Origin: a virus
Lineage: Duplodnaviria; Heunggongvirae; Uroviricota; Caudoviricetes
DNA length: 35,108 nucleotides
Reading direction: 5' to 3' (one strand)
Virus record (IMG/VR): IMGVR_UViG_3300029474_000225
Coordinates: 1-35,108 of that record
Part shown: positions 9,529 to 33,070 of the stretch, one piece after another
How the letters are laid out: each line of letters begins with the position of its first letter
Numbering within the stretch: the stretch's first letter is position 1
Notes under the pieces: model-generated
Seen by the model: the letters and a program-made list of their open reading frames with translations, nothing else
Database searches by the model: none
What the model was told of the DNA's origin: nothing
Made by a program: the position numbers and the translations under genes

Positions 9529-9556
9529 CATATTGATTGTTAGTTGTGTTAAATTT

Positions 9557-16299: not shown

Positions 16300-16328
16300 A
16301 GAAGAGTGGTTAAGCAACACACTCTTCT
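16300..16328 (-). terminator. Terminator overlapping the stop codon of the nuclease gene
   Basis: AGAAGAGTG/CACTCTTCT inverted repeat plus T-run. Confidence 0.6.
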
Positions 16329-17831: not shown

Positions 17832-17843
17832 TATTTATTCTCT
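17832..17843 (-). promoter_or_regulatory. Conserved phage promoter-like motif AGAGAATAAATA
   Basis: One of seven intergenic same-orientation copies of RGAGAATAWAYA. Confidence 0.65.
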
Positions 17844-17948
17844 TTTTAAATTCCATCACAACACAAAAAGAAGCCACTTCATGCGAAATGACTTCTCATA
17901 ATTTCCGATATTAAATTTCCAATGAAAGTGCAAATTCTTGACACTTAA

Positions 17949-18021
17949 CACACATTCTACGATTTGAACATAGACCTGACGATTTTGGAGATCGTTGCTC
18001 TACCAATTAAGCTAAAGGTGT
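17949..18021 (-). tRNA. tRNA-Trp (CCA)
   Basis: Anticodon arm ACGAT-CTCCAAA-ATCGT, T arm CTATG-TTCAAAT-CGTAG, G73; one acceptor mismatch (C5.U68). Confidence 0.88.
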
Positions 18022-18065
18022 ATATAATAAAAGAGCCATCTCTTATGAAATGACTCTTTCTTGAA

Positions 18066-18139
18066 TCTGGATAACAGGACTTGAACCTGCGGAATCATGA
18101 TCCCAAATCATGCATTCTACCAAACTGAATTATATCCAG
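18066..18139 (-). tRNA. tRNA-Pro (UGG)
   Basis: Acceptor CTGGATA/TATCCAG, anticodon arm CATGA-TTTGGGA-TCATG, GGTTCAAGTCC. Confidence 0.92.
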
Positions 18140-18194
18140 ATAATATTTTTAAAATTTCTCCACATACTAATCAAAACATCTAAGGAGAACACCC

Positions 18195-18863
18195 ATGAAC
18201 ACATCATACAAAACAGCAATTCAATTCAAAGATTTATATATTCCCGTAAAAATGTTAAAAACATCACACAATAGTTCTATAGAACTTAATCAACTCTGCA
18301 AAGACTCCAAAGAAAGAGTGCGTTATATCAAATTTTGTCCATCTTGTAATAAAGAAATCCACAATGAAGATATTGTAAAAGGATATAAATATGCAGAAGA
18401 TAAGTATGTTATTTTGGAACAACATGATATAGAATCAATTACATCAAACAAAGATAGAACACTTTCAATAAAATATTTCTGTAAATCAAAGGAAATATCA
18501 GACCTACTCATAGATAAATCATATTATTTAATTCCTGAAATGGAGTCAGAAATCGAATATGAACTTCTTCGTAAAGCTATGACTATGAATAGAGTAGTAG
18601 GTATGGCTGAAATTGTATTGGGTACAAAACAAGAATTAGTTGCGTTGTTTGCCAATAAGAATTGTATTATTGCAACCATTTTATTTTATGAGAACGAGAT
18701 TAACGAATTACCGATTATCATGAAGCATAAAACAGATAAACAGCAACTCGAAAATCTCAAACAAGATATCTTAGATAATACAAAAGAATTTGATTTGGAA
18801 TCTCATTATGATAAATATCAACTCAAGTTAAGAAAATTGATATTTGATAAAATTCCAAAATGA
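18195..18863 (+). CDS. ku: Ku DNA end-binding protein (core domain only)
   Basis: IQFKDLYIPVKM, RVRYIKFCPSC, DIVKGYKY...YVIL and KSYYLIP motifs; SD AAGGAG; the only credible plus-strand gene. Confidence 0.92.
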   Translation: MNTSYKTAIQFKDLYIPVKMLKTSHNSSIELNQLCKDSKERVRYIKFCPSCNKEIHNEDIVKGYKYAEDKYVILEQHDIESITSNKDRTLSIKYFCKSKEISDLLIDKSYYLIPEMESEIEYELLRKAMTMNRVVGMAEIVLGTKQELVALFANKNCIIATILFYENEINELPIIMKHKTDKQQLENLKQDILDNTKEFDLESHYDKYQLKLRKLIFDKIPK

Positions 18864-18867
18864 TATT

Positions 18868-19050
18868 GCCTTTCTCATTCCATCCTCGAATGGCGAGCTT
18901 TCATCTAAACTGCATAGGACGTATCCTATTGTTACAACAGTACCAGTCCGAAGACCGCAAAGGGCATAGGACGGTAGTAAGTGTTGAGCTTACACGCCTA
19001 AGTTCCGTATGCATCCAAAAAATAGGTTTTGGCATCAGGTTTACCGCATA
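18868..19050 (-). ncRNA. Unassigned structured RNA(s) downstream of tRNA-Glu
   Basis: GGTC-TTCG-GACT and ATAGGA-TACG-TCCTAT UNCG hairpins, closing GCC(C)TTT/AAAGGC, adjacent long hairpin. Confidence 0.5.
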
Positions 19051-19055
19051 AAAAA

Positions 19056-19126
19056 TAGGGCATAACGGACTCGAACCGATACTCATGGAATGAAAATCCA
19101 TTGTCTTACCTTTTGACTAATGCCCC
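19056..19126 (-). tRNA. tRNA-Glu (UUC)
   Basis: Acceptor GGGGCAT/ATGCCCT, anticodon arm ATGGA-TTTTCAT-TCCAT, GGTTCGAGTCC. Confidence 0.88.
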
Positions 19127-19158
19127 ATATTTAGGGTGGAAAAATACCACCCATTATT

Positions 19159-19635
19159 TTACAGAATAACTTCTGTTTTACCTTCAAACTTAGTGTTCAA
19201 GGCACGAATCTCAGCAAGCTTCTTACCGATTTCTTCCTGAATCTTAGTAGCGAAAAGTTCAACTTTTGCCTTACCAAGTTTCTCAACACTATCAAAAGGT
19301 GCTTTGACTTCTGATTCTGGAATCTTTGTAACATCTATAGAGAATGTAATGTGAAGGTTTTCATCTACAACAAATGACTGGTTGATAATATCTTTTAATT
19401 CAACAGAGATAATAGTTGAATCATCAACTTCACTATCAGTTGTAACTGGATCTCCATTAGAGTCAGTTTTCATATTAGATTTAAAGGATATTTTAGAATA
19501 TTCGATTGTTCTGACAAAATTATGTAACATATCTTTTTCAGTGGCAGCATCAGTATCAGATGTACCTAATTCTGCAACAGAAATATCTACACCAATAATA
19601 TTTTCATCAATAGTTTTGCTAATATTTAATTTCAT
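19159..19635 (-). CDS. Hypothetical protein, 158 aa
   Basis: ORF overlapping the upstream stop (ATGA), followed by a hairpin at 19133-19152. Confidence 0.75.
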   Translation of the reverse strand: MKLNISKTIDENIIGVDISVAELGTSDTDAATEKDMLHNFVRTIEYSKISFKSNMKTDSNGDPVTTDSEVDDSTIISVELKDIINQSFVVDENLHITFSIDVTKIPESEVKAPFDSVEKLGKAKVELFATKIQEEIGKKLAEIRALNTKFEGKTEVIL

Positions 19636-19928
19636 GAATTTGTGCCCTCACTTTCGTTGTAAATAACTTGTCTGTAAGCATCTTTAATTGAAATAAAGAA
19701 ATCTCGTAATACATCTTTATCAATCGAACAATCAAGATTTGATGTTTCAAATTTTGGATTATATACTGTAAAATCTAATGTTCCATTATCCCTAGGTACA
19801 AATAAAATTTCTACATTGTTATTTAACTGTAATGTAATTGAATCTATTTTCTCACCATTACTAGAAGTAACTTTTCGTACTTGTCCGACCTTTAACGGGG
19901 TTTGTTCAATTACAAGTCTATTTGCCAT
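19632..19928 (-). CDS. Hypothetical protein, 98 aa (start re-called at MANRLV)
   Basis: SD AAAGGAG 7 nt upstream of ATG 19928; the longer ORF-track start runs through a tRNA. Confidence 0.75.
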   Translation of the reverse strand: MANRLVIEQTPLKVGQVRKVTSSNGEKIDSITLQLNNNVEILFVPRDNGTLDFTVYNPKFETSNLDCSIDKDVLRDFFISIKDAYRQVIYNESEGTNS

Positions 19929-19975
19929 ATACATACTCCTTTCTTTTATTTTTCGTTTTCCTTTTAATCGTTTAG

Positions 19976-20049
19976 TTGCGGAAACAGAACTCGAACCTGC
20001 ATATTCTTGGTTATGAGCCAAGTGAGCTTCCATTACTCGTCATTCCGCT
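19976..20049 (-). tRNA. tRNA-Met (CAU), initiator-like but atypical
   Basis: CTTGG-CTCATAA-CCAAG anticodon arm, unpaired A1.A72, GCGGAA/TTCCGC acceptor, GGTTCGAG T loop. Confidence 0.75.
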
Positions 20050-20052
20050 ATG

Positions 20053-20154
20053 ATAATAGGAGAGGAGCGACCTCTCCATATTATATGTAGATTGGTAAGA
20101 TCTACTGCCGATTGATTACCAGTCAACCGACAAAGAGAACATTGAAAATTCTCT
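20053..20154 (-). ncRNA. Four-hairpin RNA with complementary loops
   Basis: Four consecutive stems directly downstream of the promoter-like motif at 20166-20177. Confidence 0.5.
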
Positions 20155-20165
20155 GATATGTTACT

Positions 20166-20177
20166 TATATATTCTCC
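20166..20177 (-). promoter_or_regulatory. Conserved promoter-like motif GGAGAATATATA
   Basis: Copy of the repeated motif. Confidence 0.6.
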
Positions 20178-20184
20178 ATATATT

Positions 20185-20580
20185 TTCAGTCTTCGGAGTA
20201 AAGACCAATTGATAAGGTTTCATATCTCTTACCAGTTAATTAAGGTTCTCATTAACGCAGAGAAGCACGAACATTTTCTCATTTCTGAAGGCTGAGAGAA
20301 ACCGATGATCCGAGATGTTGGTAGGAGAGATATAGGTCTTACAATACTACATGAATAGCAAATGCCAAGATATGTTAATCGTCTACTAAGCCAAGACCTC
20401 TCCATAACACCGCCAATGAGCAGTAAGCAGTGGGAAGTTTTAGACCATTCCAAGGTCAAATATTTCTGCAAACCGACCTTTATATTTGTGTCGCATATCG
20501 GTCAGCGACAGCTCATTTGTAAAAGCCTATCAGTGAACTGACAGACCGTCCTCACTTCCTTTGGATGTGAGTAGCTTGTT
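20185..20580 (-). ncRNA. Large (~400 nt) unassigned structured RNA
   Basis: No credible ORF, more GC-rich than flanks, many stems with G.U pairs, begins just after the motif at 20586-20597. Confidence 0.5.
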
Positions 20581-20585
20581 ATATC

Positions 20586-20597
20586 TATTTATTCTCT
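20586..20597 (-). promoter_or_regulatory. Conserved promoter-like motif AGAGAATAAATA
   Basis: Copy of the repeated motif. Confidence 0.6.
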
Positions 20598-20692
20598 ACA
20601 TTGTCGTCACCTCTCGGCTCAAATATCACGTTACTATGCTTTCTTGTTTAAATTAAATTGTTGATGTTAGACGAAGGCTTCATCGGGATTGC

Positions 20693-21727
20693 CTACAAAT
20701 CAGAAAGTGATTTTTGTTCTACTTGTTTTATTTCTCCATCAGCAAAATATTTTGCAAATTGCTCATCTGCATCAATATCCTTGTACACTGATACCATATC
20801 TAGCGAACTCCATCCGACTAGCATTTGAATTACATCATCAGGAAGACCGCTTCGAGAACAAGAAGTTGTAAAGAAGTGACGAAGACTGTGAAAATAAAAG
20901 TCTTCTCCTAAATGCTTACTGAATGTATCAGCCCAGCTATCAAGAGTGCTTGAATCCATAGGTTCATCTATATATTCTCCATTTACTTTCTTTGGAAATA
21001 ACCATTCTGATTCAATTCCGTGTTCTTTTCTATAATTCATCCACAAATCAAAATATGGCTTAAACGGTTTTGCAAGTGTATATACCACTAACATTTTTCC
21101 GCGAGATCCTCTTCCTTTTGTTTGGATCTTTTCAGGTGTTTTATATAAAGAACCGTATATGATATTTTCATCATCGAAATAAGATACTTTAAATCGTGGT
21201 AACTCACTCTTACGTCTGCCACTAAATGCAGCTAATGCTAAAATACAAGCCTTGTCATATTTACCTTTTTCAACCCAATAATCAAGCATACCCTGTACTT
21301 GTTCATCGGATAATACAGTTTTAGTAAATACTTTCTCATTTGCAGGATTTTCAATCTTACGTATAATCGGTTTAAAGTCCTCATACTCATCATCTAATAT
21401 AGCTTCGACATAATTTGAAAGAGAAGAGAGAGTAGATTTTACTCTATGCATTCTAGCTGGCGACCATTTATATTCAGTAAGACAAAAACTCTGATAACGA
21501 GCAATATCCCTCTTAGATAAATCAATAAAGAATTTGTTGTCGCAATGCTGAAGTAGATAAACCCAAAAAATAAAAAGGTCACGTCTATATGCATTGATTG
21601 TATTTGGGGTTCTATCAACTGAACGAAGATAATCCAAAAAGTCATTTCCTAATTTTATATTCTCTTTATTACACTGAGTCAATAACTCATCAGTAACAAT
21701 ATTATTGTGTTGTATTTTTCTACCCAT
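20693..21727 (-). CDS. Tyrosine recombinase (XerC/D/integrase family)
   Basis: SAM-like N-domain (TINAYRRDL), GRRKSE Arg, HSLRH, LVGW and SVY Tyr. Confidence 0.92.
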   Translation of the reverse strand: MGRKIQHNNIVTDELLTQCNKENIKLGNDFLDYLRSVDRTPNTINAYRRDLFIFWVYLLQHCDNKFFIDLSKRDIARYQSFCLTEYKWSPARMHRVKSTLSSLSNYVEAILDDEYEDFKPIIRKIENPANEKVFTKTVLSDEQVQGMLDYWVEKGKYDKACILALAAFSGRRKSELPRFKVSYFDDENIIYGSLYKTPEKIQTKGRGSRGKMLVVYTLAKPFKPYFDLWMNYRKEHGIESEWLFPKKVNGEYIDEPMDSSTLDSWADTFSKHLGEDFYFHSLRHFFTTSCSRSGLPDDVIQMLVGWSSLDMVSVYKDIDADEQFAKYFADGEIKQVEQKSLSDL

Positions 21728-21776
21728 TAAATCTCACTTCCTTCCAAATAAAAAAGAAGTGAGATAGTAGTAAATA

Positions 21777-23075
21777 CTAAGCCACTTCTTTCAAATATTT
21801 ATTCAATATATTTCTATATGTTTCTTCATTCATTTCATCTGGTAATAAAATATAATAATCAAGTCCATTGCGTTCAAAAATATCACGTTTTTGGTATAAT
21901 TTCTGTCGATACAATTCTTTTGACTTTGATTTTATTGGAGTATTATTTCGATAAGCTTCTTGATGACCTTTGTTCCCAAGTATGCCAGCAAGTTCTATAT
22001 AGACTTTTTTATTATTGAAAATAATAAGATAATCGCAATTCATATTGCCATTATAAGAATTATCTATAGATTTGTATGGAATATTTCTGAAATAACTTTC
22101 ATTAAATAAAATATTATTACTTCTCAAAAATCTGCTAAATTCATATTCATATAAAGATGTCGTAACTTCTCCATCATCGAATTTATAATTCATTCCATTT
22201 CCTGCTTTTTGTAATTCATATCCTAATGAATTTATATATTCTCGGAAAGAACAATTCTTTAATTTCTTACAAACTTCTGCATATTTACGATTGTCTGCAT
22301 AAGTACCATATTTTCTAAAGTCATTATATGTAATAACACTTCTATTTTCTTGAGTTTTTATCAGATTACACACATCATTAATTTCTTTGATAGTATCTTC
22401 ATCTGATAAAATACTTCCATGTTTGCCAGTTATTTTCATTCCAAGTTCTTTTTGCATTAGCCATAATTCGCCCCAAAATTTTCGTACAGTTCTAATACCA
22501 ACACCATCTTTTTGTTTTGGATAAAAATCATATACATCCAATGGTGAACATTTGCGTTCTTGCATTTTCATTACAATATTTATTACATCTTGTTTTGAAA
22601 GTTCTCTTTCAGACTTTCTTTTAGCTTTAATCTCTTCATATCCCTCTTGGTATTGAAAAGTGTAATGCTGTACTTGATTCCATGTTATATTATGTATATT
22701 TCCTTTTGAATCAATGTAATCCATCTTTTCTCGTGATGCACCATTAACAGGAAGATTAGTTCCATCAATATGCAAATCTATATTATTTAATTTACAATAT
22801 AAATTTATATTATCATATGTATATGGATTACCTAAAAAGAATCTGTTTAAACATGTATATCTTCCCTTGCCATTCTTTATTTGATGGTACTCTGTTCTGT
22901 GTTTATATCCATAATTGTCAATAATATCTAAGTAATATTTTCTCGATTTTAATTTTTCATTGTATACAACTTCAATACTCTCATTCAATAAATTGTACAC
23001 AACATCTTCCGAAAATTTTACTGGAAAACTATTTCTTATAGCTTCCAATTGTTTGTTTACATTTTTTGTTCCCAT
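21777..23075 (-). CDS. Free-standing homing-endonuclease-like protein with C-terminal PD-(D/E)XK domain
   Basis: TSLYEYEFSRFL...NCDYLII...YIELAG...YRQKLYQKR C-terminal domain; cassette organised like 16310-17668. Confidence 0.65.
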   Translation of the reverse strand: MGTKNVNKQLEAIRNSFPVKFSEDVVYNLLNESIEVVYNEKLKSRKYYLDIIDNYGYKHRTEYHQIKNGKGRYTCLNRFFLGNPYTYDNINLYCKLNNIDLHIDGTNLPVNGASREKMDYIDSKGNIHNITWNQVQHYTFQYQEGYEEIKAKRKSERELSKQDVINIVMKMQERKCSPLDVYDFYPKQKDGVGIRTVRKFWGELWLMQKELGMKITGKHGSILSDEDTIKEINDVCNLIKTQENRSVITYNDFRKYGTYADNRKYAEVCKKLKNCSFREYINSLGYELQKAGNGMNYKFDDGEVTTSLYEYEFSRFLRSNNILFNESYFRNIPYKSIDNSYNGNMNCDYLIIFNNKKVYIELAGILGNKGHQEAYRNNTPIKSKSKELYRQKLYQKRDIFERNGLDYYILLPDEMNEETYRNILNKYLKEVA

Positions 23076-23219
23076 AATTTTTCCTACTTTCTCACCTACT
23101 CTAATACATAAAAATAGAATGGGAGAGAGGTAGGTGACTCTACTCTGTCAGCTCATGACTTCTGACAGTCCCATTCCATAAATCCCACAATCAGCTATGA
23201 CACCAATCATGAGCACATA

Positions 23220-23231
23220 TATTTATTCTCT
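23220..23231 (-). promoter_or_regulatory. Conserved promoter-like motif AGAGAATAAATA
   Basis: Copy of the repeated motif at the head of the nuclease leader. Confidence 0.65.
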
Positions 23232-23295
23232 GTTTCCATATAAAGTTCGTTGCCGATTTAACATCTCCCAATCCGTATATAAAAACATTGAAAAG

Positions 23296-23378
23296 TCCTC
23301 CCACTTGGTAATGCTCCAAGCCGATCCGAAGACGACAGATTTACAGTCTGCCCCACATCTTTAGTGGTCTATGAGAGG
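23296..23378 (-). tRNA. tRNA-Tyr (GUA), atypical
   Basis: GCAGA-CTGTAAA-TCTGT anticodon arm, long variable arm, acceptor CCTCTCA/TGGGAGG, A73; non-canonical D and T loops. Confidence 0.75.
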
Positions 23379-23385
23379 ATACAAA

Positions 23386-23413
23386 AAGAGTGTGTAGCAT
23401 ACACCACACACTC
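23386..23413 (-). terminator. Terminator
   Basis: AGAGTGTGT/ACACACTCT inverted repeat plus T-run. Confidence 0.65.
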
Positions 23414-23420
23414 TAAATAT

Positions 23421-24095
23421 TTAAAAAATAAAATCAAGCAAATCAAATAATCTTCCAACCGAATTATATTCGTCAAAATCACTTAAATCAATCGGCTTAC
23501 TAGAATAAAATTCACGCTTTTCATATCCATTAACATCACTTTTAACAGAAGTAAATCCGTGAATTTTTCCGTTTTCATCTTTATCGAATGTAATATTTTT
23601 ATGAGAATAATCACTTACGTCACTGCAACTGCAATTCTTACAATTACCATCACAATCATCGTCTACATCTTCAGCGTCCTCACCAATGTTGAATTCATGA
23701 ATAATGCATCCAGAATCTTTATTGTCCATAACAAAAGCTGAACTCACATCTCCATGAATAAATACAATGTCTGTCTCATCCATATTGATATAAGTATCAC
23801 TTCCCTCATACTTGGCAGCTTGAACCCATACATTCATTTCAGAATCAATATTAAGAATAAATGCGTCATCATAACCGTCCCAATAAGGATCATTCAAATC
23901 GTTACAAGAAGCAAGTTTAAAATTCGTATTTTTAATAACAGAATTAAGAACATCTTTCATCACATCATACTTAGCCACAACTACAATTTCTGAACAATCA
24001 TCGTCATAATCTCTTGTACAAACATCCAGCTTGTCAAAAGTATCTGCTAAAAATTCAGCAAAATCATTTGTATCTGTAAAACCAAATGTTTTCAA
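23421..24095 (-). CDS. Acidic hypothetical protein with a Cys cluster (CDGNCKNCSC); start probably TTG 24095
   Basis: ORF track 23421-24110; GGTGGTGA SD favours the TTG. Confidence 0.7.
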   Translation of the reverse strand: MKTFGFTDTNDFAEFLADTFDKLDVCTRDYDDDCSEIVVVAKYDVMKDVLNSVIKNTNFKLASCNDLNDPYWDGYDDAFILNIDSEMNVWVQAAKYEGSDTYINMDETDIVFIHGDVSSAFVMDNKDSGCIIHEFNIGEDAEDVDDDCDGNCKNCSCSDVSDYSHKNITFDKDENGKIHGFTSVKSDVNGYEKREFYSSKPIDLSDFDEYNSVGRLFDLLDFIF

Positions 24096-24115
24096 TATTT
24101 TCACCACCAATCAAA

Positions 24116-24409
24116 TTAAGCGTTCTTTACAGCTTCTTTAAAAGCCTTACCAGCCTTAAATTTTGGTGCTTTAGAAGCTGGGATAGAAATTGATTCGCCA
24201 GTAGCAGGATTTCTTCCCTCTCGTGCAGATCTTGTTGTAGTTTCAAATGTGCCAAATCCTACAATCTGAACCCTCTCACCTGCAATAACAGTATCCTGAA
24301 TTGCCTTAATTGTCGCATCTACAAACACTGCCGTATCCTTTGCAGTTACTCCTTCTAATGTCTCTGATACTGTATCCTTAACTACCTTAATTAATTCTGT
24401 CTTTGTCAT
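24116..24409 (-). CDS. hup: HU histone-like DNA-binding protein
   Basis: MTKTELI...VQIVGFGTF...AREGRNPATGESISIPASKAPKFKAGKAFKEAV. Confidence 0.97.
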   Translation of the reverse strand: MTKTELIKVVKDTVSETLEGVTAKDTAVFVDATIKAIQDTVIAGERVQIVGFGTFETTTRSAREGRNPATGESISIPASKAPKFKAGKAFKEAVKNA

Positions 24410-24509
24410 TTTAAATTTTCTCCTTTAAATTCATAATATTTTTTATTTTTTTTGTAATATAAAAGAGGGTAGCGTCTCGTTCGAGTACACTCCCTCTGAA
24501 ATTAGTATT

Positions 24510-25700
24510 TTATTTAAGCTCAATAGGGTAGTAAGCTTTTACTCCCTTATCAGTACAGATACAAACCATCTGTGACGGTTTGCCTGTTAATCTCTTTTCA
24601 ATTGTATATGAGTCTCCGCAGCCAGCAAGAGATCCACCACGAATCATTTTTACACCGTTCGTTTCATCTACAGAACAAACATGTAAATGTCCATAAGTAA
24701 TTGCATATGGAACAAAACCAAGTGCTAAACATAAATTTTGAACACCAGATTTGTTAAATCCGTCATAATCGCCATGTACGGCAATATATGATTTTCCTCT
24801 GATTAAAATATCAGAAATGCCGGTATCAATATTTATGTGTAAAACATGAAAATTATCAATATGTTTTAGAGATAATTCAACCGCCCAACTGATAATATCA
24901 TCCAAACGTTCATCATGAATTGCATCATCTTTACGATCCATGCGAGTATGATTTCCGCTAACATTTGACATAAATACCGTTTCGAAATGTAACGACAATT
25001 CATAGCAGAATGAAGATATTAACTCTGTAGCAATTTTAATCTGTTCAATTACATTTTCTCTATTTGATACCTGGATTGATTTGTGAATATTTCCTGAAAT
25101 TAAATCGCCTTGAAGACTAACATAACAATTTTTAGAATTATGTAATTCACGAATAGAAATGACTTCATTCAATAATTGATTAAGTCTATCTTTTGCAATA
25201 TCTGTATTATATTTACCAAAAATAGAATCAAAAGTCTGTCCAATATGTAAATCACTCAAAATAATTAACATATCATTATCTGAATTGATTGAAACATTAT
25301 TGTGTTCGTCAAAATTAGTTCTTCCAAGAGAGGTTAGTTCTGACTCTAATTTATCAAGTTTTTCTTCAACCCTGGCATCCGTAAAATTTTGTTTCTGCCA
25401 AGCGTTTCGCTCATCTCTAAATTGAATTTTCTTACGTTCTAATTCACGTTTCTGAACTTCAATTTCCTTTAACTGAGCATCTGAATCAGCAAATTTAGAT
25501 TGATTTGCAGCCAACATCTTATCGAAAGCTTGTCTCTGTTTTCTAAACTTTGATTCGGTATACTCAGTGCCAAGTAACTCATTTAGAATATCGGCTACAT
25601 CCTGCCAAGAACCAATCTGGTCTTTTTCACCTGTAATTCTATAAATGAGTTCTTCATCTGACTCTCCATTAAATCTTTTATAGACTGTTATAATGTCCAC
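24510..25700 (-). CDS. Calcineurin-like metallophosphoesterase with N-terminal HTH/coiled coil (SPbeta YonJ-like)
   Basis: SDLHIG, GDLISG, GNHTR, VHGD and GHLH motifs. Confidence 0.85.
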   Translation of the reverse strand: MDIITVYKRFNGESDEELIYRITGEKDQIGSWQDVADILNELLGTEYTESKFRKQRQAFDKMLAANQSKFADSDAQLKEIEVQKRELERKKIQFRDERNAWQKQNFTDARVEEKLDKLESELTSLGRTNFDEHNNVSINSDNDMLIILSDLHIGQTFDSIFGKYNTDIAKDRLNQLLNEVISIRELHNSKNCYVSLQGDLISGNIHKSIQVSNRENVIEQIKIATELISSFCYELSLHFETVFMSNVSGNHTRMDRKDDAIHDERLDDIISWAVELSLKHIDNFHVLHINIDTGISDILIRGKSYIAVHGDYDGFNKSGVQNLCLALGFVPYAITYGHLHVCSVDETNGVKMIRGGSLAGCGDSYTIEKRLTGKPSQMVCICTDKGVKAYYPIELK

Positions 25701-25707
25701 CTACTCT

Positions 25708-25917
25708 CTACTCAGTAGATTCCGATTCTTCATCTGGAAGCTCAATACTAATTTTAATATCAAAAATAGTAGTACCTTCTGGTAACATTTCAGCAATACG
25801 ATCTACAATAGAACCTTCATCATCAACGAAAACTCCGTTTTCAATTCTTACACCACTTGCTGTAATATTCTTTTTAGCAGCACTAACAGTTGCTTTCTTA
25901 ATTTTACTATCTACCAT
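25708..25917 (-). CDS. Small acidic protein (YonK-like by size and position)
   Basis: 69 aa, SD AAAGGAG, upstream of the phosphoesterase. Confidence 0.55.
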   Translation of the reverse strand: MVDSKIKKATVSAAKKNITASGVRIENGVFVDDEGSIVDRIAEMLPEGTTIFDIKISIELPDEESESTE

Positions 25918-25963
25918 GTTTTCTCCTTTTTCTCAAATAAAATAGGAAAGCAGTGCGCTCTCC

Positions 25964-26602
25964 TTAAAATAATTCCTCAATATTTGTAATAATGTGGTCA
26001 GCTACACCCTTTTCAATAATCTCGTTAGCATCTAACCACCAATTTTTACGATAATTTTTATCATATTCACTCTCAGTAATCTTTGTATGACTTAAAATGA
26101 ATCGTTTTGTATCTTCCTCGATTTTCTTAGTTCTCTCTAAGTCATCAAGCACTTTACCAGTATCTCCATAACTGCCAGTAGAACCATCATGAATAAGTGC
26201 TTCAGTTGATGACAAAATATATCTGTTACCCTTTGGAATACCCATGAGCAAAAGCCCACCAGCAGAGTAACATTTACCCATCCCAATAGCATGAACTGGT
26301 GTTTTTGACAGATTACAGATATTAATAAGCTCGTTTATTGCATTAAGAGAACCACCATTTGAATTAATCCAAATCTTAATTGGCTTTCTTTCGGCAATTG
26401 CTATATCCTTATCTTCTCTATTCCATTCAACTATTTCCTGAGTCCACTCTACAATCCAATCATCAATATCTTGGTTAATCAGAATTTCCCGATTATTTAA
26501 TCGCTTATAATAATCAACAAGAGTAGGATCTGCAAGTTTGTAATTTGCTTCACTTCCTAAATTATCAAATTCTAACTGTAAATAATCTTTATTCATAGGC
26601 AC
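25964..26602 (-). CDS. clpP: ClpP-like peptidase
   Basis: PIKIWINSNGG, CYSAG Ser, LIHDG His, WWLDANE...GVADHII. Confidence 0.85.
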   Translation of the reverse strand: MPMNKDYLQLEFDNLGSEANYKLADPTLVDYYKRLNNREILINQDIDDWIVEWTQEIVEWNREDKDIAIAERKPIKIWINSNGGSLNAINELINICNLSKTPVHAIGMGKCYSAGGLLLMGIPKGNRYILSSTEALIHDGSTGSYGDTGKVLDDLERTKKIEEDTKRFILSHTKITESEYDKNYRKNWWLDANEIIEKGVADHIITNIEELF

Positions 26603-26625
26603 TTAGCCTCCAATTTCATAATATT

Positions 26626-27864
26626 TTACATAGCATCAGCTACAGCAGCAATCTTACTTCTGTAGATGTTCTGTAATTCAATTTCTCCATAAAAATCATG
26701 TCCTCTGAATATCTCAGACATTCTTCGCATACCATTATTATTGCCTGCATATTGATTTAGATCGACTTGAACATTGTAATCGCCATCTACAATGCAGATC
26801 GAATCTTCGCCAATTCTCTGTAATGCAAGTTTCATAAGTGATATATCTAAATTCTGTGCCTCTGTAATATAGACCGCACAATTCAAACCACTCGTATCAA
26901 ATCCTCGAATATCACACATTGGTAAAATAGAAAGTTTATTTCTTGATACAAGCTGTTCAATCATAAACTTATCTCCAAGTTTTCCTGCAAGCATGTTACC
27001 AATACTTGAATCAACAAGCTTATCTAACTGTGTTCCTGGCAAGAAACCAATCTTAGCCGAATTCATAGTAGGAATTGGGTTAGCAAAAATCACAATTTTA
27101 TCAATCTTATGCTTTTCAAGCAACCACATCATATACCCAACTGCAAGATACGATTTTCCTGTACCAGCAGAACCTTTAATCATAGTAATCTGATTATTAG
27201 AGAAACTATTCAAAGCCATCTGCTGATAAATATCTCCATTAAGAGGCTTAACTACACCAAAGTAATCTGATTTGATATTTGGGAATTTAATATTTTGATA
27301 CATTCCTTCTCGCCAAACGAGAGTGTCAACGACATGATTATTAGAATCTTTTAAGATAAGATATTCATTTTCAAGTAATCCATAGATATTTTCCTGTAAA
27401 TGTTCATAAAAACGAGCCATTTCTAACTCTGAAAGCGTTTTTTCTATAAATCCACTATAATCATCCACTGGCTCATCATTTACACCTTTTACAGTAAGAT
27501 TAAATATTTTTCTTGCAATCATTTTACAAGCAATATCATCCGTAATAAAAACAACATCCTGCATTCCGCTTATAAATGCACAGCTACCAACTATTTTAGT
27601 ATCAGGTGTTATTTCCATATTTTTCTCAAGTATGTAGTTTTCAATTGCGTTGTCATATACAACAACTTCATATTTATCCGAATTTTCATCAAGTAGATGT
27701 AAAGTTTTTCGTGCCTCATACTTTACTTGATCATCTTTGTTTCGAGATACTTTAATGTGCTCTAATTCTTGTAATGTTACAGAACTTATAATAAAATTTT
27801 CCTCAAATATTTTGTCCTGTAATTTTAAAACAGCATTAGTATCATAAAATTTTATTGTACCGAT
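26626..27864 (-). CDS. phoH: PIN-PhoH protein (PIN RNase domain plus PhoH ATPase); probable non-AUG start ATC at 27864
   Basis: Frame stays open 82 codons above ATG 27618 and encodes FYDTN...TLQELE PIN motifs; GSAGTGKS, GFLPG, IRG, EAQN and RS motifs. Confidence 0.85.
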   Translation of the reverse strand: MGTIKFYDTNAVLKLQDKIFEENFIISSVTLQELEHIKVSRNKDDQVKYEARKTLHLLDENSDKYEVVVYDNAIENYILEKNMEITPDTKIVGSCAFISGMQDVVFITDDIACKMIARKIFNLTVKGVNDEPVDDYSGFIEKTLSELEMARFYEHLQENIYGLLENEYLILKDSNNHVVDTLVWREGMYQNIKFPNIKSDYFGVVKPLNGDIYQQMALNSFSNNQITMIKGSAGTGKSYLAVGYMMWLLEKHKIDKIVIFANPIPTMNSAKIGFLPGTQLDKLVDSSIGNMLAGKLGDKFMIEQLVSRNKLSILPMCDIRGFDTSGLNCAVYITEAQNLDISLMKLALQRIGEDSICIVDGDYNVQVDLNQYAGNNNGMRRMSEIFRGHDFYGEIELQNIYRSKIAAVADAM

Positions 27865-27899
27865 GGTTTCCGACCACCTTTCATTTTAGATTTCGTTTA

Positions 27900-28067
27900 T
27901 TAAACGATTTTGCTTTTCCTGTACTCATCCAAAGCTTTTAAGTTATTGTAAGACTCAACCAGATAATACTTAGAATGACCACTATAAGTCTTTTTTACAT
28001 TCTCGTTCCCAACAAGTTTCCTCATTGCAAAAGCTTCTGTTTTGTTAATTAATAAAATAATTTTCAC
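27900..28067 (-). CDS. Small basic hypothetical protein (~53-55 aa, ...LLINKTEAFAMRKLVG...KSKIV)
   Basis: Read by hand; SD AAAGGATGTGA; start is GTG 28067 or ATT 28061/28058. Confidence 0.65.
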   Translation of the reverse strand: MKIILLINKTEAFAMRKLVGNENVKKTYSGHSKYYLVESYNNLKALDEYRKSKIV

Positions 28068-28106
28068 ATCCTTTGATTTATTTCCTACGATAGAGTAGGA
28101 TAGTAG

Positions 28107-28181
28107 TTGGAAATGTAGGATTTGAACCCACGACCTCCTGAACCCAAATCAGGCGTTCTAACCAAACTGAACTAATTCCCA
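28107..28181 (-). tRNA. tRNA-Pro (UGG), second copy
   Basis: CCTGA-TTTGGGT-TCAGG anticodon arm, GGTTCAAATCC, acceptor TGGGAAT/ATTTCCA. Confidence 0.9.
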
Positions 28182-28191
28182 AAATAAAAAA

Positions 28192-28213
28192 ATCCCATAC
28201 CGAAGTATGAGAT
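28192..28213 (-). terminator. Terminator with UUCG loop after the GOLLD-like RNA
   Basis: ATCTCATAC-TTCG-GTATGGGAT-TTTTT on the minus strand. Confidence 0.75.
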
Positions 28214-28225
28214 CCTTACTTAATA

Positions 28226-29052
28226 TAGGCTGAGATATTTGACCTAACACACCAACATCTACTGTGGTTGGACACAGTTTATCACACAAGCGATTAGCTT
28301 GTAGTTAGCAACAACACCAGTTTTGACATAACCGGCAAACTCTTACCATAAAGTATTATAGATTTTCTTTCTACACATTCTTCCTTGCGAGATTCATAGG
28401 TTGCAGCCTATTAGAGTTGCATATACTTGTACTTTCTCACATAATACCTTGCGAGTATTATATGTGTCCATATTACAGGACAATAAGTTGTTTTTCTCTT
28501 TATGGTCATACACACTTTTGCTGTTTTACAATCTTCTTTTAAATATTATCTGCCTAAAATAATTTGATTTTTCAAAAGTATGTACTTATTATGGACGATG
28601 AGGTGTACATTTGACCATCCGTACCTTTTGAGTACAGCCCAATCATCACCATCCTGCTCGGATTGCGATCTCCTTACTTTGTATTAAGTTTCCTATCTTT
28701 CAATTTAAGAAAACTACCTACAATCTGATCAGCAGTTATACTTGCGGTATTCCCACCAACCATACACAAATCATACCCACATTTCTGCGTTACTACAGTG
28801 CCTATTTCAAGACACCCACCATATCAACTTGTTTAAGAATTATCAAACCGTAAGATTATCAAATCTACATAAACTTGTAAATAGTCATTATCAGTTGACC
28901 TCTGACCTTAGATATGGTGTAGATTTTATGTGTTTTCCGTTAAACTGTATTTCACAGTCGCAGCCTTATAATACGATAAGAACCACTTTATACATGTCGC
29001 CATGCTTATTTTTGAGATTTAACATCTCCTGATCCGAAACCAACCAGTCCTA
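28226..29052 (-). ncRNA. GOLLD-like giant structured ncRNA (~830 nt)
   Basis: Between two tRNAs, no credible ORF; ordered 3-prime-half segments CTCAAAAG, GCAAAAGTG, CCTGTAAT, CTCGCAAG and terminal ATCTCAG resemble GOLLD as recalled from memory; several GNRA loops. Confidence 0.72.
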
Positions 29053-29066
29053 CAAAAGTAGAAAAG

Positions 29067-29139
29067 CTCTCCCAGTAAGACTCGAACTTACGACTTTCGC
29101 ATTAACAGTGCGATGCTCTACCAGCTGAGCTATAAGAGA
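29067..29139 (-). tRNA. tRNA-Asn (GUU)
   Basis: TAGCTCAGCTGGTAGAGC D arm, TCGCA-CTGTTAA-TGCGA, GTTCGAG, G73. Confidence 0.92.
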
Positions 29140-29144
29140 TTAAG

Positions 29145-29495
29145 AATTGTCAGTGACCATACCACAGGAACTGTAGCACAGCCACCGATCTATAAGAAGA
29201 GGAGTACAATATGAATATGTACCAATCTTAGAAATGAACTTTAGAATTGTTCAGAACCGCCAATGAATTAGTAGCGATGGAATCTCTTAGATTTTATCAG
29301 TTCACCAAATAAGCTGATTATCCGTAGTTTACCAACTTAACATTAAAGTTAGCATTTATGGCTGCTTGCACCACATACATTGTCTCTATGGACTTTATTG
29401 CCTCAGTATGATACGAGATCTAAATCACTGTTCTGAATTTAATTTGTGTTATATTGTGTCCGTATAGGACGTTGTTCTAATGTCTCTCGACAATT
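29145..29495 (-). ncRNA. Unassigned ~350-nt structured RNA
   Basis: Starts at the promoter-like motif; chain of hairpins ending in an 18-bp stem with six G.U pairs (29150-29188). Confidence 0.55.
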
Positions 29496-29506
29496 ATATA
29501 TTCTCT
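29495..29506 (-). promoter_or_regulatory. Conserved promoter-like motif AGAGAATATATA
   Basis: Copy of the repeated motif at the head of the ncRNA/tRNA block. Confidence 0.65.
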
Positions 29507-29610
29507 GTTTTATCAGCCAAGAAAAGCTGATTTCATTGTTTTCCATTACTGATATATAACACCACAAAAACAGCTATAAAGCCTTATTTTACAAGGAAAA
29601 CTCGGATTTT

Positions 29611-30465
29611 CTATTTCGCTACTCTATATTTATGAGCAATTTTTCGCTTTCTTTCACGCTCATTTAAAGTCGCACAATCATAACAATACAATCGTTTATT
29701 CCCTGTTTTTTCAATAATCCCACCACAACGTTTGCAACGAGAATACTTATTATTATGTCCACGCCTAACAGAATAATAGTCTTTTTGGTAGTTTTGAAAA
29801 TATGTATTTAACGACCTATTTATATATTTCACATAGAAATTGTCTTCAGTGATAAAATCATAATTATTTACAATCTGAGTCTTATCTTCATATTCTCCAA
29901 TCAGTTTGCAATTATCAAAACATTTTCTCAAAAATCCTTCAACAACTTTTTTATATTCATTCCAAGATAAAGTCATTTTCTCCATTTGAAAGCGTTGTTT
30001 GAGTTTTTCGGCTTCATCAATTGCATCGTCAATTATATCTGTAGCTGTATCTGCATCCATTTCAATTCCAGATAACCAATCGAAGTACATTAATTTTGGT
30101 TTTTTTAATAAGTCCATATACTCCTTATTGAGAATTACTTCTTTATCAAAATATCTTGTATAAATATTATTGATTTTCTGCCTAATAATAGCACACCAAT
30201 TTTCCTCTTTAGTCATTGACTTATAATATCTGTATTCAATTCCAGACCATGTATCAAATACTTGTCCAAGTTCTGTATTAAGTAAGTCCTTTCTGACCTT
30301 AAAATGAATTGTTTTCATATATGTGCGTCTTTTATTATCAGAAGCCCATATTGAGGAGCAGAACGAGTTGAATATCTCGTCCTTTACCTCATTATTCTCT
30401 GCTTCTTTGTAATCTTCTATAATTTCATATAGAAATGTTTCATTACAGTCGTAAATATGTATCAC
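29611..30465 (-). CDS. Helical protein with C-terminal Zn finger; candidate transcription factor/RNAP partner
   Basis: CKRC...YCYDC plus basic tail; start overlaps the RNAP gene end. Confidence 0.6.
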   Translation of the reverse strand: MIHIYDCNETFLYEIIEDYKEAENNEVKDEIFNSFCSSIWASDNKRRTYMKTIHFKVRKDLLNTELGQVFDTWSGIEYRYYKSMTKEENWCAIIRQKINNIYTRYFDKEVILNKEYMDLLKKPKLMYFDWLSGIEMDADTATDIIDDAIDEAEKLKQRFQMEKMTLSWNEYKKVVEGFLRKCFDNCKLIGEYEDKTQIVNNYDFITEDNFYVKYINRSLNTYFQNYQKDYYSVRRGHNNKYSRCKRCGGIIEKTGNKRLYCYDCATLNERERKRKIAHKYRVAK

Positions 30466-33070
30466 CTACCTCAAATTCATAGTATTTTCCAAGATATTCA
30501 TATGAGTTGTCCGTTTTATAAGGAACTTCTCTTATTGATATATTTCTCTTTGGATTTGTGTTATTCTTGAGATTTTTAATGATATAATCACCATAAGCTG
30601 ACCATGCAAGAGATTTGCTAATAGAAACAGAAGAGTACGAAGCTTTGATAATATAATTTGCTATAATATTTTCAGGCAACCCAATCTCGTTTAGGAGTTC
30701 TGCCTTATATTCATTTACGACTTCATCCATATTAAACTTATGGTCTTCATCGTCCGACTTATCTCTATGCAGATTCAGATGTTGCTTAATATCAACCGCA
30801 TACATATTTATGAACTTCCTGCATTTCTTTAAGACTTTTTTATCAGACAAATTCAAATCATTATCAATAATTAAACATCTAGTATCAACTAAATCTATCT
30901 TATTGTCCCATAAGATATTTTTCTTTTCCCAAGTTTCAATATAATCACACAACTCGTTCATAGGAGAGGGAGAGTGGTATGCATTGAGATATTCTTTCTC
31001 ATCATCAGATACATCTTTGTTCTTTTTGATTATATTCATATAGGATTTCATTTTCTTTGGGTAATTGTGAAGTAGAAAATACGGAAGTTGTTTAAGATGT
31101 TTTCTAAGACCTGAATTCATATGCCATCTGAATCCCGTTTTGAGGAAGTCGATTTCTTTGCCCTGAAAAATTCTTAGAAGAGAAGAGTAGTCAGAATACA
31201 ATTTTTGTATAACTGGATTAGTCGTATATTTATTCTCTATACTTGTAGCAACATTTGTGATTTCACCAATACGATTATCTCTTGTCATAACCTCGTACTC
31301 AATTAAATTCTCTTTTGTATAAGGCTTAGACTGAGCAGTTACTTTATCTTCAATATCAAGTATGATATGCTTATCTATCTTTGAATCAATAATGATAGGA
31401 TCGTTGCTTAAATAGAAAATATCACCATCAAAATCTGCGCCGCCTTGCTGTGGAGCTGATACATCATACATATTAAACATTACTACATCTTGGTCTTTAA
31501 AATAATCAAACCATTTTGTAAGAATGTCATTTCGTACAATCTTAATCTTATTTACCTCTGATGGATCAACAAGCGGAGAACGGAATGAACAACAATATCC
31601 TGGTTCAAAATTTGCTGTATATAATTCTCTTTCTCCAAGACAACCAATTGGTTCTTCACCAACGGCATACTGAAGATAACCAATCATATCACCAACACCT
31701 GTATGATAAAAACCTGAACAATAAATTTTACCAACCTTTGCTTCATCAATAGACTTTTTGAGTTTTCTATAAATGAATTGCTTAACGGCAGGATCTTTTA
31801 ACATAACATCATTTACCAATGCAGCTTCAAGATATTTACTTTCTGGCTCATAATCTTCTGTATCTGTAATTCCCATGAATTTATATGTATAAAATTTATC
31901 ACCTCTAATGATTTTTTCATACATATTAGTGGTATATTTTGCAAGCTTAATGATTTTTCCATCATTCTTAGAATCTAATATGTCATAGTCCTTTTTTGTT
32001 TTATCTGTATAACATTTAACATATTTATCATTCCAAAGATCCAGACATTGTAAATACTGAAAATTCATTCGTGTATATTTATTTAAATGCTTAATATGAT
32101 GACTGTATTTACTGATTCCAAGTTTGAATTCATACTTTCTGACAGTATTCATATATTCAATCCATGCGTTTTCGCCATAAGTTGACTTAAAAATCTTGTG
32201 CCCTTTAAACATCGAAATGTTCCAAATGCAATCTACATCATCAACATTATGAACATGACCATAGATGTCAGTGATAGTAGTATAGCCCCATTCTTTAAGA
32301 ATTTGTTTAAATGGTACATACACAGAATATCCTTTAATAAATGGTAAACGCACCTGTGTTCCAATAACTTTGTAGTCTAATCCAAGTTGCTCACTCACAG
32401 TATTCATAAAGTTTTCTTCATGACAACCACAACCATCAAAAGGTGATAGTCCAATATCCTTTAATCCTTCTTCGATTTCTCTGGTTTTATATTTCTTTTT
32501 CTTACCAGTGTTTTCATCAACAAATTCTTTTTCTCTTTCAACTACATATTTGATAAGCTGATTTTTCAATGTTTTTTCATACTCGCCAATAATTACAATA
32601 TTAGGCATATAATCTTTAATAAGAGTACATGAACTAAAAGGCAAACATCTTTGAGCTTCATACTTAGAAATAACACACTCATCAATTTTAATATCCATCT
32701 GAGTAATTAAATATAATTCATCAAAAATTTCATCGCATACAAATGCAGTAATTCCATCCTTACCTTGAGAAGCTGATTTACCAAAACGAGAGTAATGAAC
32801 TCCATTATATGTAAATCCATTATTTAGAATTGTTCTAAGAGATTCTTCTTGTTTTGGATTTTTTTTTGCAACAACCAACATGAGTTCACTTATATGAGAG
32901 GACGGTTTGCCACGAAGCCTCTGAATCTGATCAAATAAAGGAGAGTCACCTTGTTTGATAAGATATTCCTTTTTTATTTCGGTTTCTCTATTAATTTGAA
33001 TATTAAAATTCCCATCTATAAGTTCTCTTATTGGTATTTTAACTAATGTATATTGTACCTTTTTTATAAT
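30443..33070 (-). CDS. YonO-like single-chain DNA-dependent RNA polymerase (double-psi beta-barrel, RdRP-related); probable non-AUG start
   Basis: GADFDGD catalytic loop, FRSP, DGCG, QVRLPFIKG, IG.ITN and IDF.KTG motifs; frame open 64 codons above ATG 32881 to a strong SD. Confidence 0.88.
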   Translation of the reverse strand: MIKKVQYTLVKIPIRELIDGNFNIQINRETEIKKEYLIKQGDSPLFDQIQRLRGKPSSHISELMLVVAKKNPKQEESLRTILNNGFTYNGVHYSRFGKSASQGKDGITAFVCDEIFDELYLITQMDIKIDECVISKYEAQRCLPFSSCTLIKDYMPNIVIIGEYEKTLKNQLIKYVVEREKEFVDENTGKKKKYKTREIEEGLKDIGLSPFDGCGCHEENFMNTVSEQLGLDYKVIGTQVRLPFIKGYSVYVPFKQILKEWGYTTITDIYGHVHNVDDVDCIWNISMFKGHKIFKSTYGENAWIEYMNTVRKYEFKLGISKYSHHIKHLNKYTRMNFQYLQCLDLWNDKYVKCYTDKTKKDYDILDSKNDGKIIKLAKYTTNMYEKIIRGDKFYTYKFMGITDTEDYEPESKYLEAALVNDVMLKDPAVKQFIYRKLKKSIDEAKVGKIYCSGFYHTGVGDMIGYLQYAVGEEPIGCLGERELYTANFEPGYCCSFRSPLVDPSEVNKIKIVRNDILTKWFDYFKDQDVVMFNMYDVSAPQQGGADFDGDIFYLSNDPIIIDSKIDKHIILDIEDKVTAQSKPYTKENLIEYEVMTRDNRIGEITNVATSIENKYTTNPVIQKLYSDYSSLLRIFQGKEIDFLKTGFRWHMNSGLRKHLKQLPYFLLHNYPKKMKSYMNIIKKNKDVSDDEKEYLNAYHSPSPMNELCDYIETWEKKNILWDNKIDLVDTRCLIIDNDLNLSDKKVLKKCRKFINMYAVDIKQHLNLHRDKSDDEDHKFNMDEVVNEYKAELLNEIGLPENIIANYIIKASYSSVSISKSLAWSAYGDYIIKNLKNNTNPKRNISIREVPYKTDNSYEYLGKYYEFEVGDTYLRL

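Follow-up and report, generated by a model that had tools for sequence, protein, structure and literature searches.

A tRNA island in an SPbeta-like provirus that probably holds a multi-family library of type III antitoxin mimics

The 35,108-nucleotide (nt) stretch of DNA analyzed here (hereafter the window; IMG/VR record IMGVR_UViG_3300029474_000225) comprises bases 1-35108 of a 126,254-base provirus record, G000, that is 85% complete. We examined window positions 17832-33070, the tRNA and non-coding RNA island of an SPbeta-like provirus of gut bacteria, and above all a chain of small pseudoknots at 20174-20510. Holin, portal and terminase genes lie on the left of the gene order, a content like that of SPbeta, and the packaging genes are followed by Ku, a tyrosine recombinase, HU, an exonuclease-family metallophosphoesterase, ClpP, a PIN-PhoH fusion and a YonO-type RNA polymerase (RNAP). 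The original prediction had taken the island for a phage RNA factory with about 2.5 kb of non-coding sequence, and that sequence is indeed present: 3,005 bases lie outside open reading frames (ORFs) and tRNAs, a count that includes leaders and terminators. Rfam, at gathering and E-value thresholds, recognized tRNAs and the GOLLD RNA only, with no ROOL, ribozyme or abiF match. Relatives were compared at 28 loci anchored on PhoH, and variants of the pseudoknot block (20170-20590) were drawn from 117 viral loci.

The block at 20174-20510 is a chain of H-type pseudoknot-forming sequences in which different units occur in one copy each (PK1 to PK7, Table 1). Our pseudoknot scan of the block revealed five candidates on the coding strand compared with 1.27 in shuffled sequences (0 of 30 shuffles reached this number), and one on the opposite strand. 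Across the viral loci, relatives gain and lose short units singly, between conserved joints, and within each unit the loops vary while both stems stay (70-190 locus records per unit). Changes in the phage variants of PK1, PK4, PK5, PK6 and PK7 are mostly pairing-neutral, with some positions fixed by the search patterns. The hallmark of type III antitoxins, tandem near-identical repeats with a terminator, is lacking: the CptI-type unit is single-copy in all 76 loci of the window's phage group, and no terminator-like site was found inside the chain. Relatives also hold units that are absent from the window, one of which resembles the host cptI L338 (z 4.4), and a conserved linker before the GOLLD slot (29501-29530) can fold as a pseudoknot whose second stem uses the RGAGAATA motif discussed below; it has no host match.

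A related prophage (73% identity in PhoH) sits in a Coprococcus genome, and we therefore used the family of that genome, which we take to be the Lachnospiraceae, as the host pool. Type III toxin genes were found in this family at 45 of 251 genomes for toxN, 30 of 201 for cptN and 15 of 201 for tenpN. For the main comparison we used 57 of 61 host antitoxin regions upstream of such genes, omitting L297, L328, L342 and L348, which have no visible antitoxin array, and a structure-preserving null that keeps the stems (200 draws, p floor 0.005). By sequence and predicted fold, at least two units closely resemble host RNA antidotes of self-destruct ribonucleases: PK1 matched host cptI (z 4.9, p 0.005) and PK5 matched a host ToxI subfamily (z 5.5, p 0.005). 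The identity with host antitoxins reaches into loops and tails, beyond the null, and none of seven control pseudoknots reached p<0.13.

PK1 has the H-type fold, the first stem (S1) of 5-6 base pairs, the 1-nt first loop, the A-rich long loop and the core sequence of CptI antitoxins. It shares an 18-nt core, spanning loop and second stem (S2), with CptI_Er of the Eubacterium rectale cptIN locus as given in the primer table of Rao 2015 (PMC4627078, PDB 4RMO), and its S1 differs from that of CptI_Er in letters yet is fully paired, the changes being paired ones. The CptI pattern has a single match in the window and none in 100 shuffles. Unlike the E. rectale locus, PK1 stands without tandem repeat, terminator or toxin. 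PK5 in turn has the compact pseudoknot, invariant inner S1 pairs, S2 of 4-5 base pairs and host-repeat likeness of ToxI, and a covariance model built from host ToxI only ranks it first in the 126 kb (E 0.013). Together with PK4 and PKA, a further ToxI-like unit outside the chain, it shares with the Lachnospiraceae-type toxIN loci (L277-L306; Blower 2012, PMC3401426) an invariant G-C pair at S1's inner end, an S2 of four bases and the 3' tail, whereas the phage units are solitary, mixed with other types and accompanied by no toxin.

Joint phage-host alignments, whose rows we chose ourselves, have 98.7% of cells paired and 3 of 7 pairs doubly changed for ToxI, and 93.8% of cells paired and 9 of 10 pairs doubly changed for CptI. 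The ToxI descriptor gave 26 sense and 0 antisense matches in the host loci; on the phage side it gave 3 matches in 2.9 kb of island, one being a hairpin of GOLLD, and 2 across the remaining 247 kb. In the relative L024, the S2 of the PK5 variant has shifted to the letters of the host repeat. Host-form ToxI patterns had 0 matches each in viral contigs, a search of the block at 29200-29500 against plasmids, phages and 301 host genomes returned one related prophage and chance-level matches only, and block E likewise returned chance-level matches only among INPHARED phages.

The block might instead be one or more phage structural RNAs of the GOLLD or ROOL kind, with the antitoxin likeness a by-product of small pseudoknots, and the five candidates that lack a host match would fit this. 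Against it stand the gain and loss of single units, the modest folding of the whole block (z -1.9) and the host identity in loops and tails that exceeds the structure-preserving null, and we regard it as quite improbable.

Profiles of ToxN, TenpN and CptN found nothing in G000, no toxin ORF was found downstream of the RNA in this 85% complete record, and CptN was not found in any of five related records. The chain-bearing loci hold no toxin fragment at E<=0.1. The CptI core occurs in 95 viral loci, of which 76 belong to the window's phage group; the remainder consist of 1 canonical cptIN, 4 loci able to form S1 and 14 unable to do so. One of the more distant loci (L186) belongs to a complete 107-kb phage, G409, whose chain lies behind tRNAs and carries two distinct units that are nearly identical to host cptI (scores 67 and 74.5 against null maxima of 38 and 43) along with two weaker ToxI-like units; no toxin was found in this record. 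In a second distant phage (L195), the CptI_Er core stands immediately after tRNA-Asn. The 3-kb loci of both have no blastn match to G000, and their genomes have no match to the window's terminase allele. A second cptI type (L327-type, with the full pseudoknot) is adjoined by cptN in 8 of 9 viral loci, the ninth being L186. A solitary CptI-like unit was also seen in a 16.6-kb viral fragment, where it occupies an intergenic gap and has neither tRNA nor toxin close by (L173 1490-1535), and the relative G408 holds a TenpIN-like locus that is complete and divergent and has repeats and a terminator of its own (L580, G408:C1:25000-26300).

The chain is thus a phage-borne antitoxin look-alike without a toxin. 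Since no matching toxin gene was found in the sequenced genome, the units are likely decoys that keep host defense off, and we consider it fairly probable that the pseudoknots at 20174-20510, in their likeness to host type III antitoxins, bind and inhibit host ToxN and CptN RNases during infection. The earlier suggestion of decoys against RNA-targeting defense finds support here, in the form of look-alikes of type III antitoxins that stand alone. Type III toxins are RNases restrained by processed pseudoknot repeats, antitoxicity is cognate-specific, and a review describes the release of ToxN upon shut-off of host transcription; ToxIN and TenpIN both abort phages. The phage would transcribe the chain, each toxin would cut out and bind its own unit as it does host repeats, and the phage units would replace antitoxin that decays once host transcription stops, so that whichever toxin variant the host carries may find a substitute in the chain. 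Because antitoxicity is strictly cognate, a phage that meets many toxin variants would need one unit for each, which would account for a chain of different units rather than identical repeats, and recombination at the joints could refresh the set.

The closest precedent is the pseudo-ToxI of phage phiTE (Blower 2012, PMC3475682), also a toxin-less non-coding phage locus that resembles a type III antitoxin; phiTE escapes by expressing it, the mimicry suppressing ToxN. The phiTE locus holds 1.5 copies of one repeat and escape arose by laboratory expansion, whereas the window chain holds single copies of several different units, with at least two families (ToxI and CptI) represented, as standing variation in many natural genomes. 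In the literature covered, with subscription papers and preprint supplements mostly outside it, type III antitoxin RNA mimicry was described for phiTE and in its reviews only, and CptI mimics or mixed arrays were not found. The island probably holds a multi-family library of type III antitoxin mimics that extends phiTE-type counter-defense to several families. RNA anti-CRISPRs are solitary repeat units by which a phage copies one regulatory RNA unit of its host in order to block a defense protein. The logic is shared and the target is different: no CRISPR array matched the one window unit tested. That unit, PK2, was tried as a CRISPR-repeat mimic and rejected, as 14 of 251 genomes matched, below the reversed control, and no arrays were hit.

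Two other accounts of the units have to be weighed. They could be relics of whole type III toxin-antitoxin loci, captured by a temperate phage, that later lost their toxin genes and persist as neutral recombination anchors. A relative does carry the complete TenpIN-like locus as cargo, cptN adjoins most viral L327-type pseudoknots, PK2b and PK6 are degenerate in the window, and the whole region is a recombination mosaic. Relics would not readily explain why stems are kept while loops vary over so many records, why no toxin fragment and no host-type tandem repeat or terminator is seen between units, or why, in two distant phages, units from different families directly adjoin one another, and we think this origin unlikely. 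Alternatively, the mimics could counter the toxin-antitoxin addiction that competing mobile elements impose, or serve as lysogen buffers expressed by the prophage, rather than oppose abortive infection. CptIN_Er stabilized plasmids and did not abort coliphages, and G000 is a provirus, both in favor of such a role; yet ToxIN and TenpIN do abort phages, and the place of the chain in a tRNA island upstream of the packaging genes, behind a phage-wide motif, would fit lytic expression. We hold this role, too, to be improbable.

Several observations weigh against mimicry of host antitoxins as a counter-defense. Five of ten candidates (PK0, PK2, PK3, PK6 and PK7) had no significant match among the 57 host regions. 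PK4 reached z 3.1 in an earlier, GC-filtered run and z -0.1 in the main run, in which the matching host repeat lay outside the trimmed region; that earlier run had itself dropped the host repeats matching PK5 and gave a coding-sequence false positive at z 3.5. PKA scored 32.7 against a null maximum of 31.5, yet only z 1.4 and p 0.10 in the main run. With sequence-only scoring, background matches reach 32-34.5. The host-only CptI model, which has one stem, ranks PK1 first in the window at 17.5 bits against a background of 17.3, the second loop of PK1 has 12 nt compared with 9 nt in CptI_Er, its flanks are closer to the host type L324/L334, and no host carrying the exact PK1 unit was found. The descriptors were written after the phage units had been seen. 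The incompleteness of G000 bears on the absence of a toxin, and one of five relatives, G408, carries its TenpIN-like locus about 29 kb from its own chain. In four of six listed public RNA runs all contigs over the island had a depth of 2-5 and were uninformative on transcription; an RNA library gave a single contig of 235 nt, at depth 2. Among published results, CptIN_Er in E. coli gave no resistance to more than 200 coliphages, non-cognate CptI failed to neutralize, and a single pseudo-ToxI repeat of phiTE was not antitoxic on over-expression, protection requiring expansion (PMC3475682).

More tentatively, and at somewhat less than even confidence, we propose that gut phages with YonO-type RNAP maintain, as a standing counter-defense, libraries of RNA antitoxin mimics that recombine and hold a unit for each host ToxN, CptN or TenpN variant, that the pseudoknots without a host match point to type III toxins still to be sampled, and that the CptI mimics indicate anti-phage activity of CptIN in its native hosts. 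If true, a natural multi-family array that swaps units would be the RNA counterpart of anti-CRISPR clusters. That a phage of the native host group keeps a CptI copy, with CptIN inactive in E. coli, makes an open question testable, the phage side would offer a route to unknown RNA-antitoxin systems, and a class of 'orphan' RNA that phage tRNA islands carry, invisible to Rfam, would thereby be explained.

Table 1. Features of the island in window coordinates; S1 and S2, first and second stem; L1, first loop
Feature	Position	Strand	Remarks
tRNA-Trp(CCA)	17948..18022	-	ARAGORN
tRNA-Pro(TGG)	18065..18140	-	ARAGORN
conserved ~85-nt structured RNA	18966..19050	-	directly behind tRNA 3' end; 72 locus records; no Rfam match
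tRNA-Glu(TTC)	19055..19127	-	ARAGORN
tRNA-Met(CAT)	19975..20049	-	extended connector, low score
four hairpins	20050..20165	-	before tRNA-Met; z -5.2
PK7	20174..20206	-	pseudoknot with CptI-like geometry; S2 3' strand is an RGAGAATA site; no host match
PK6	20212..20238	-	pseudoknot, degenerate in window; compensatory S1 variants in relatives; no significant host match
PK5	20246..20269	-	putative ToxI mimic, host subfamily L280/L281/L291; among the two most widespread units
PK4	20277..20303	-	ToxI-like pseudoknot resembling one repeat of host locus L285
PK3	20305..20331	-	weak candidate, pseudoknot or hairpin; spotted by eye in variants; no host match
PK2b	20381..20403	-	ToxI-like pseudoknot; S1 mismatch in window allele; z 2.7, p 0.025
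PK2	20433..20457	-	conserved H-type pseudoknot; both stems intact, 106 locus records; z -0.6, no host match
PK1	20471..20510	-	CptI-type H-pseudoknot: 6-bp S1, 1-nt L1, 6-bp S2, A-rich 12-nt loop; single copy, no toxin
two conserved hairpins	20515..20590	-	head of chain, behind motif at 20590-20597; 5/16 pairs doubly changed in 47 variants
tyrosine recombinase	20693..21727	-	directly upstream of pseudoknot chain
hairpin leader	23116..23177	-	ahead of orf432; co-occurs with orf432-like genes
tRNA-Tyr-like RNA	23296..23378	-	intact GTA anticodon arm, non-canonical D and T loops (elbow-less); missed by ARAGORN and Rfam
metallophosphoesterase	24510..25700	-	best family 'exonuclease' phrog_284
PIN-PhoH fusion	26626..27882	-	PIN domain fused to PhoH ATPase
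tRNA-Pro(TGG)	28106..28181	-	in relatives this slot has a Lys, Thr, Ile or Pro tRNA
GOLLD RNA	28227..29062	-	~835 nt, directly behind tRNA-Asn
tRNA-Asn(GTT)	29066..29139	-	ARAGORN, Rfam
PKA	29351..29373	-	ToxI-like pseudoknot within block 29140-29500
YonO-type single-chain RNA polymerase	30443..33067	-	PF05183 E 1e-10; phrog_8308; DFDGD motif; tblastn to annotated yonO of SPbeta-like phages

The original prediction had joined the RNAP, GOLLD, orphan RNAs, odd tRNAs, PIN-PhoH and phosphoesterase into one coordinated RNA program served by an RNAP-specific promoter. The RNAP is present, with both the family profile and the DxDGD motif of the YonO type; a PDB search with it gave no match. Like SPbeta YonO (Forrest 2017, PMC5467207) it belongs to phrog_8308 and lies upstream of the packaging genes, with 23% identity between the two. 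The promoter-like motif is likewise real: RGAGAATA is the top-ranked 8-mer (z 14.7), and 101 of its 106 sites are on the coding strand. It is not specific to RNAs. Excluding sites deep within ORFs leaves 58, of which 5 fall in the island, 6 at 30-36.6 kb and 47 at 36.6-126 kb; a ribosome-binding site and start codon are present within 60 nt of 47 of these 58 sites, so that its genome-wide spread, mostly ahead of protein genes, rules it out as an RNA-specific promoter. The site at 20170 forms the second strand of a pseudoknot stem, and a sigma70 scan showed no excess (61 vs 62.9). The motif cannot be assigned to the YonO-type RNAP, because PMC5467207 does not determine the YonO promoter.

There are at least five RNAP alleles, and the distribution of the island RNAs is independent of them. 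The window allele occurs in 1 of 28 relatives, the window-type GOLLD in 19 of 28, a CptI-like unit in 5 of 26 and a ToxI-like unit in 20 of 26, the patchy and independent distribution that had been named in advance as speaking against a program built around the RNAP. The 12 relatives with a readable RNAP and the window fall into five alleles that are 20-38% identical, and all seven tested are phrog_8308; at least five such alleles thus occupy the RNAP slot among phages with near-identical PhoH (L001-L028), and ClpP, the exonuclease and the recombinase likewise swap for distant alleles among relatives. A common orientation and motif would suit one program, as would the late transcript of SPbeta YonO that begins at an unannotated non-coding RNA (PMC5467207). 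With the motif genome-wide, components that assort independently and GOLLD absent from some close relatives, we find such a program very unlikely indeed. A weaker, family-level link survives, as the distant, near-complete phages with solitary CptI units (L186 and L195) both encode a phrog_8308 YonO-family RNAP, an observation made with no control group. GOLLD, tRNAs, RNAP and PIN-PhoH are neighbors in one exchange zone, not one machine, and PIN-PhoH and the phosphoesterase are tied to the RNAs by proximity alone. PIN-PhoH itself is present as predicted, at 87 bits against the NCBIfam PhoH2 equivalog cut-off of 680. The metallophosphoesterase is a real gene; by its best family it is a putative exonuclease, and an action on RNA would be conjectural.

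GOLLD was correctly recognized. Its 3' domain (28227-28654) matches RF02032 positions 1-416 at 99 bits and E 1e-25, below the gathering score of 150, and in its 5' domain 37 of 93 predicted pairs are doubly changed in 13 variants. Because this covarying domain continues to about 29062, the roughly 400-base stretch up to tRNA-Asn is GOLLD and not an orphan RNA. The whole, about 800 nt with a structured 5' domain beside a tRNA, resembles the GOLLD described in a 2024 preprint by Kretsch in length, in the tRNA ahead of it, in a conserved 3' and a variable 5' domain and in its prophage tRNA island; it differs in falling below the gathering threshold and in being absent from close relatives or swapped there for another allele, which scores 159-171 bits in L011 and L012. 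Some loci have a protein gene in the GOLLD slot. The four orphan RNAs had been named without coordinates, and the analysis covered every non-coding block; one stretch is this 5' domain, and two blocks travel with neighboring genes. The sub-motifs said to be shared between RNAs are 8-10 nt long. In several relatives (L011 8415-8590, L021/L022 ~9550-9730, L027 8670-8835) a different non-coding module of about 175 nt takes the place of block A at the GOLLD slot's head, with no Rfam match in L011 and L021.

Six tRNAs were found in the island, together with an odd, elbow-less tRNA-Tyr-like fold that recurs in four other loci with one compensatory change in the anticodon stem. By analogy with the pseudoknots, the varied island tRNAs may counter anticodon nucleases. 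The Tyr slot (window 23296-23378; L002 14408-14492, L013 15895-15979, L014 ~13890-13990, L017 ~14408-14510) is filled by a normal tRNA-Tyr, by one of two odd Tyr forms, or by a tRNA-like RNA whose anticodon arm is rebuilt and which has an additional hairpin. The same odd tRNA-like scaffold before GOLLD (L011 ~8715-8790, L012 ~8712-8787) has the anticodon loop of Met in one phage and that of Tyr in the other, and at L027 19677-19761 the tRNA called by ARAGORN has a stop anticodon (TTA).

Finally, several protein genes of the island vary among relatives. The Ku gene (18195-18863) lies on the opposite strand within the tRNA cluster, is present in 10 of 28 relatives and has its own 3' hairpin block; the non-coding block 18865-18965 accompanies Ku in all 10 Ku-bearing loci. 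An integron-like attachment site behind the recombinase was considered and discarded, as the conserved word proved to be the last codons of another recombinase allele. Two long ORFs that flank the island (21777-23075 and 16310-17668) vary among relatives; one of them matches families of HNH/homing endonucleases, and a hit in L013 common to both connects the other with it.

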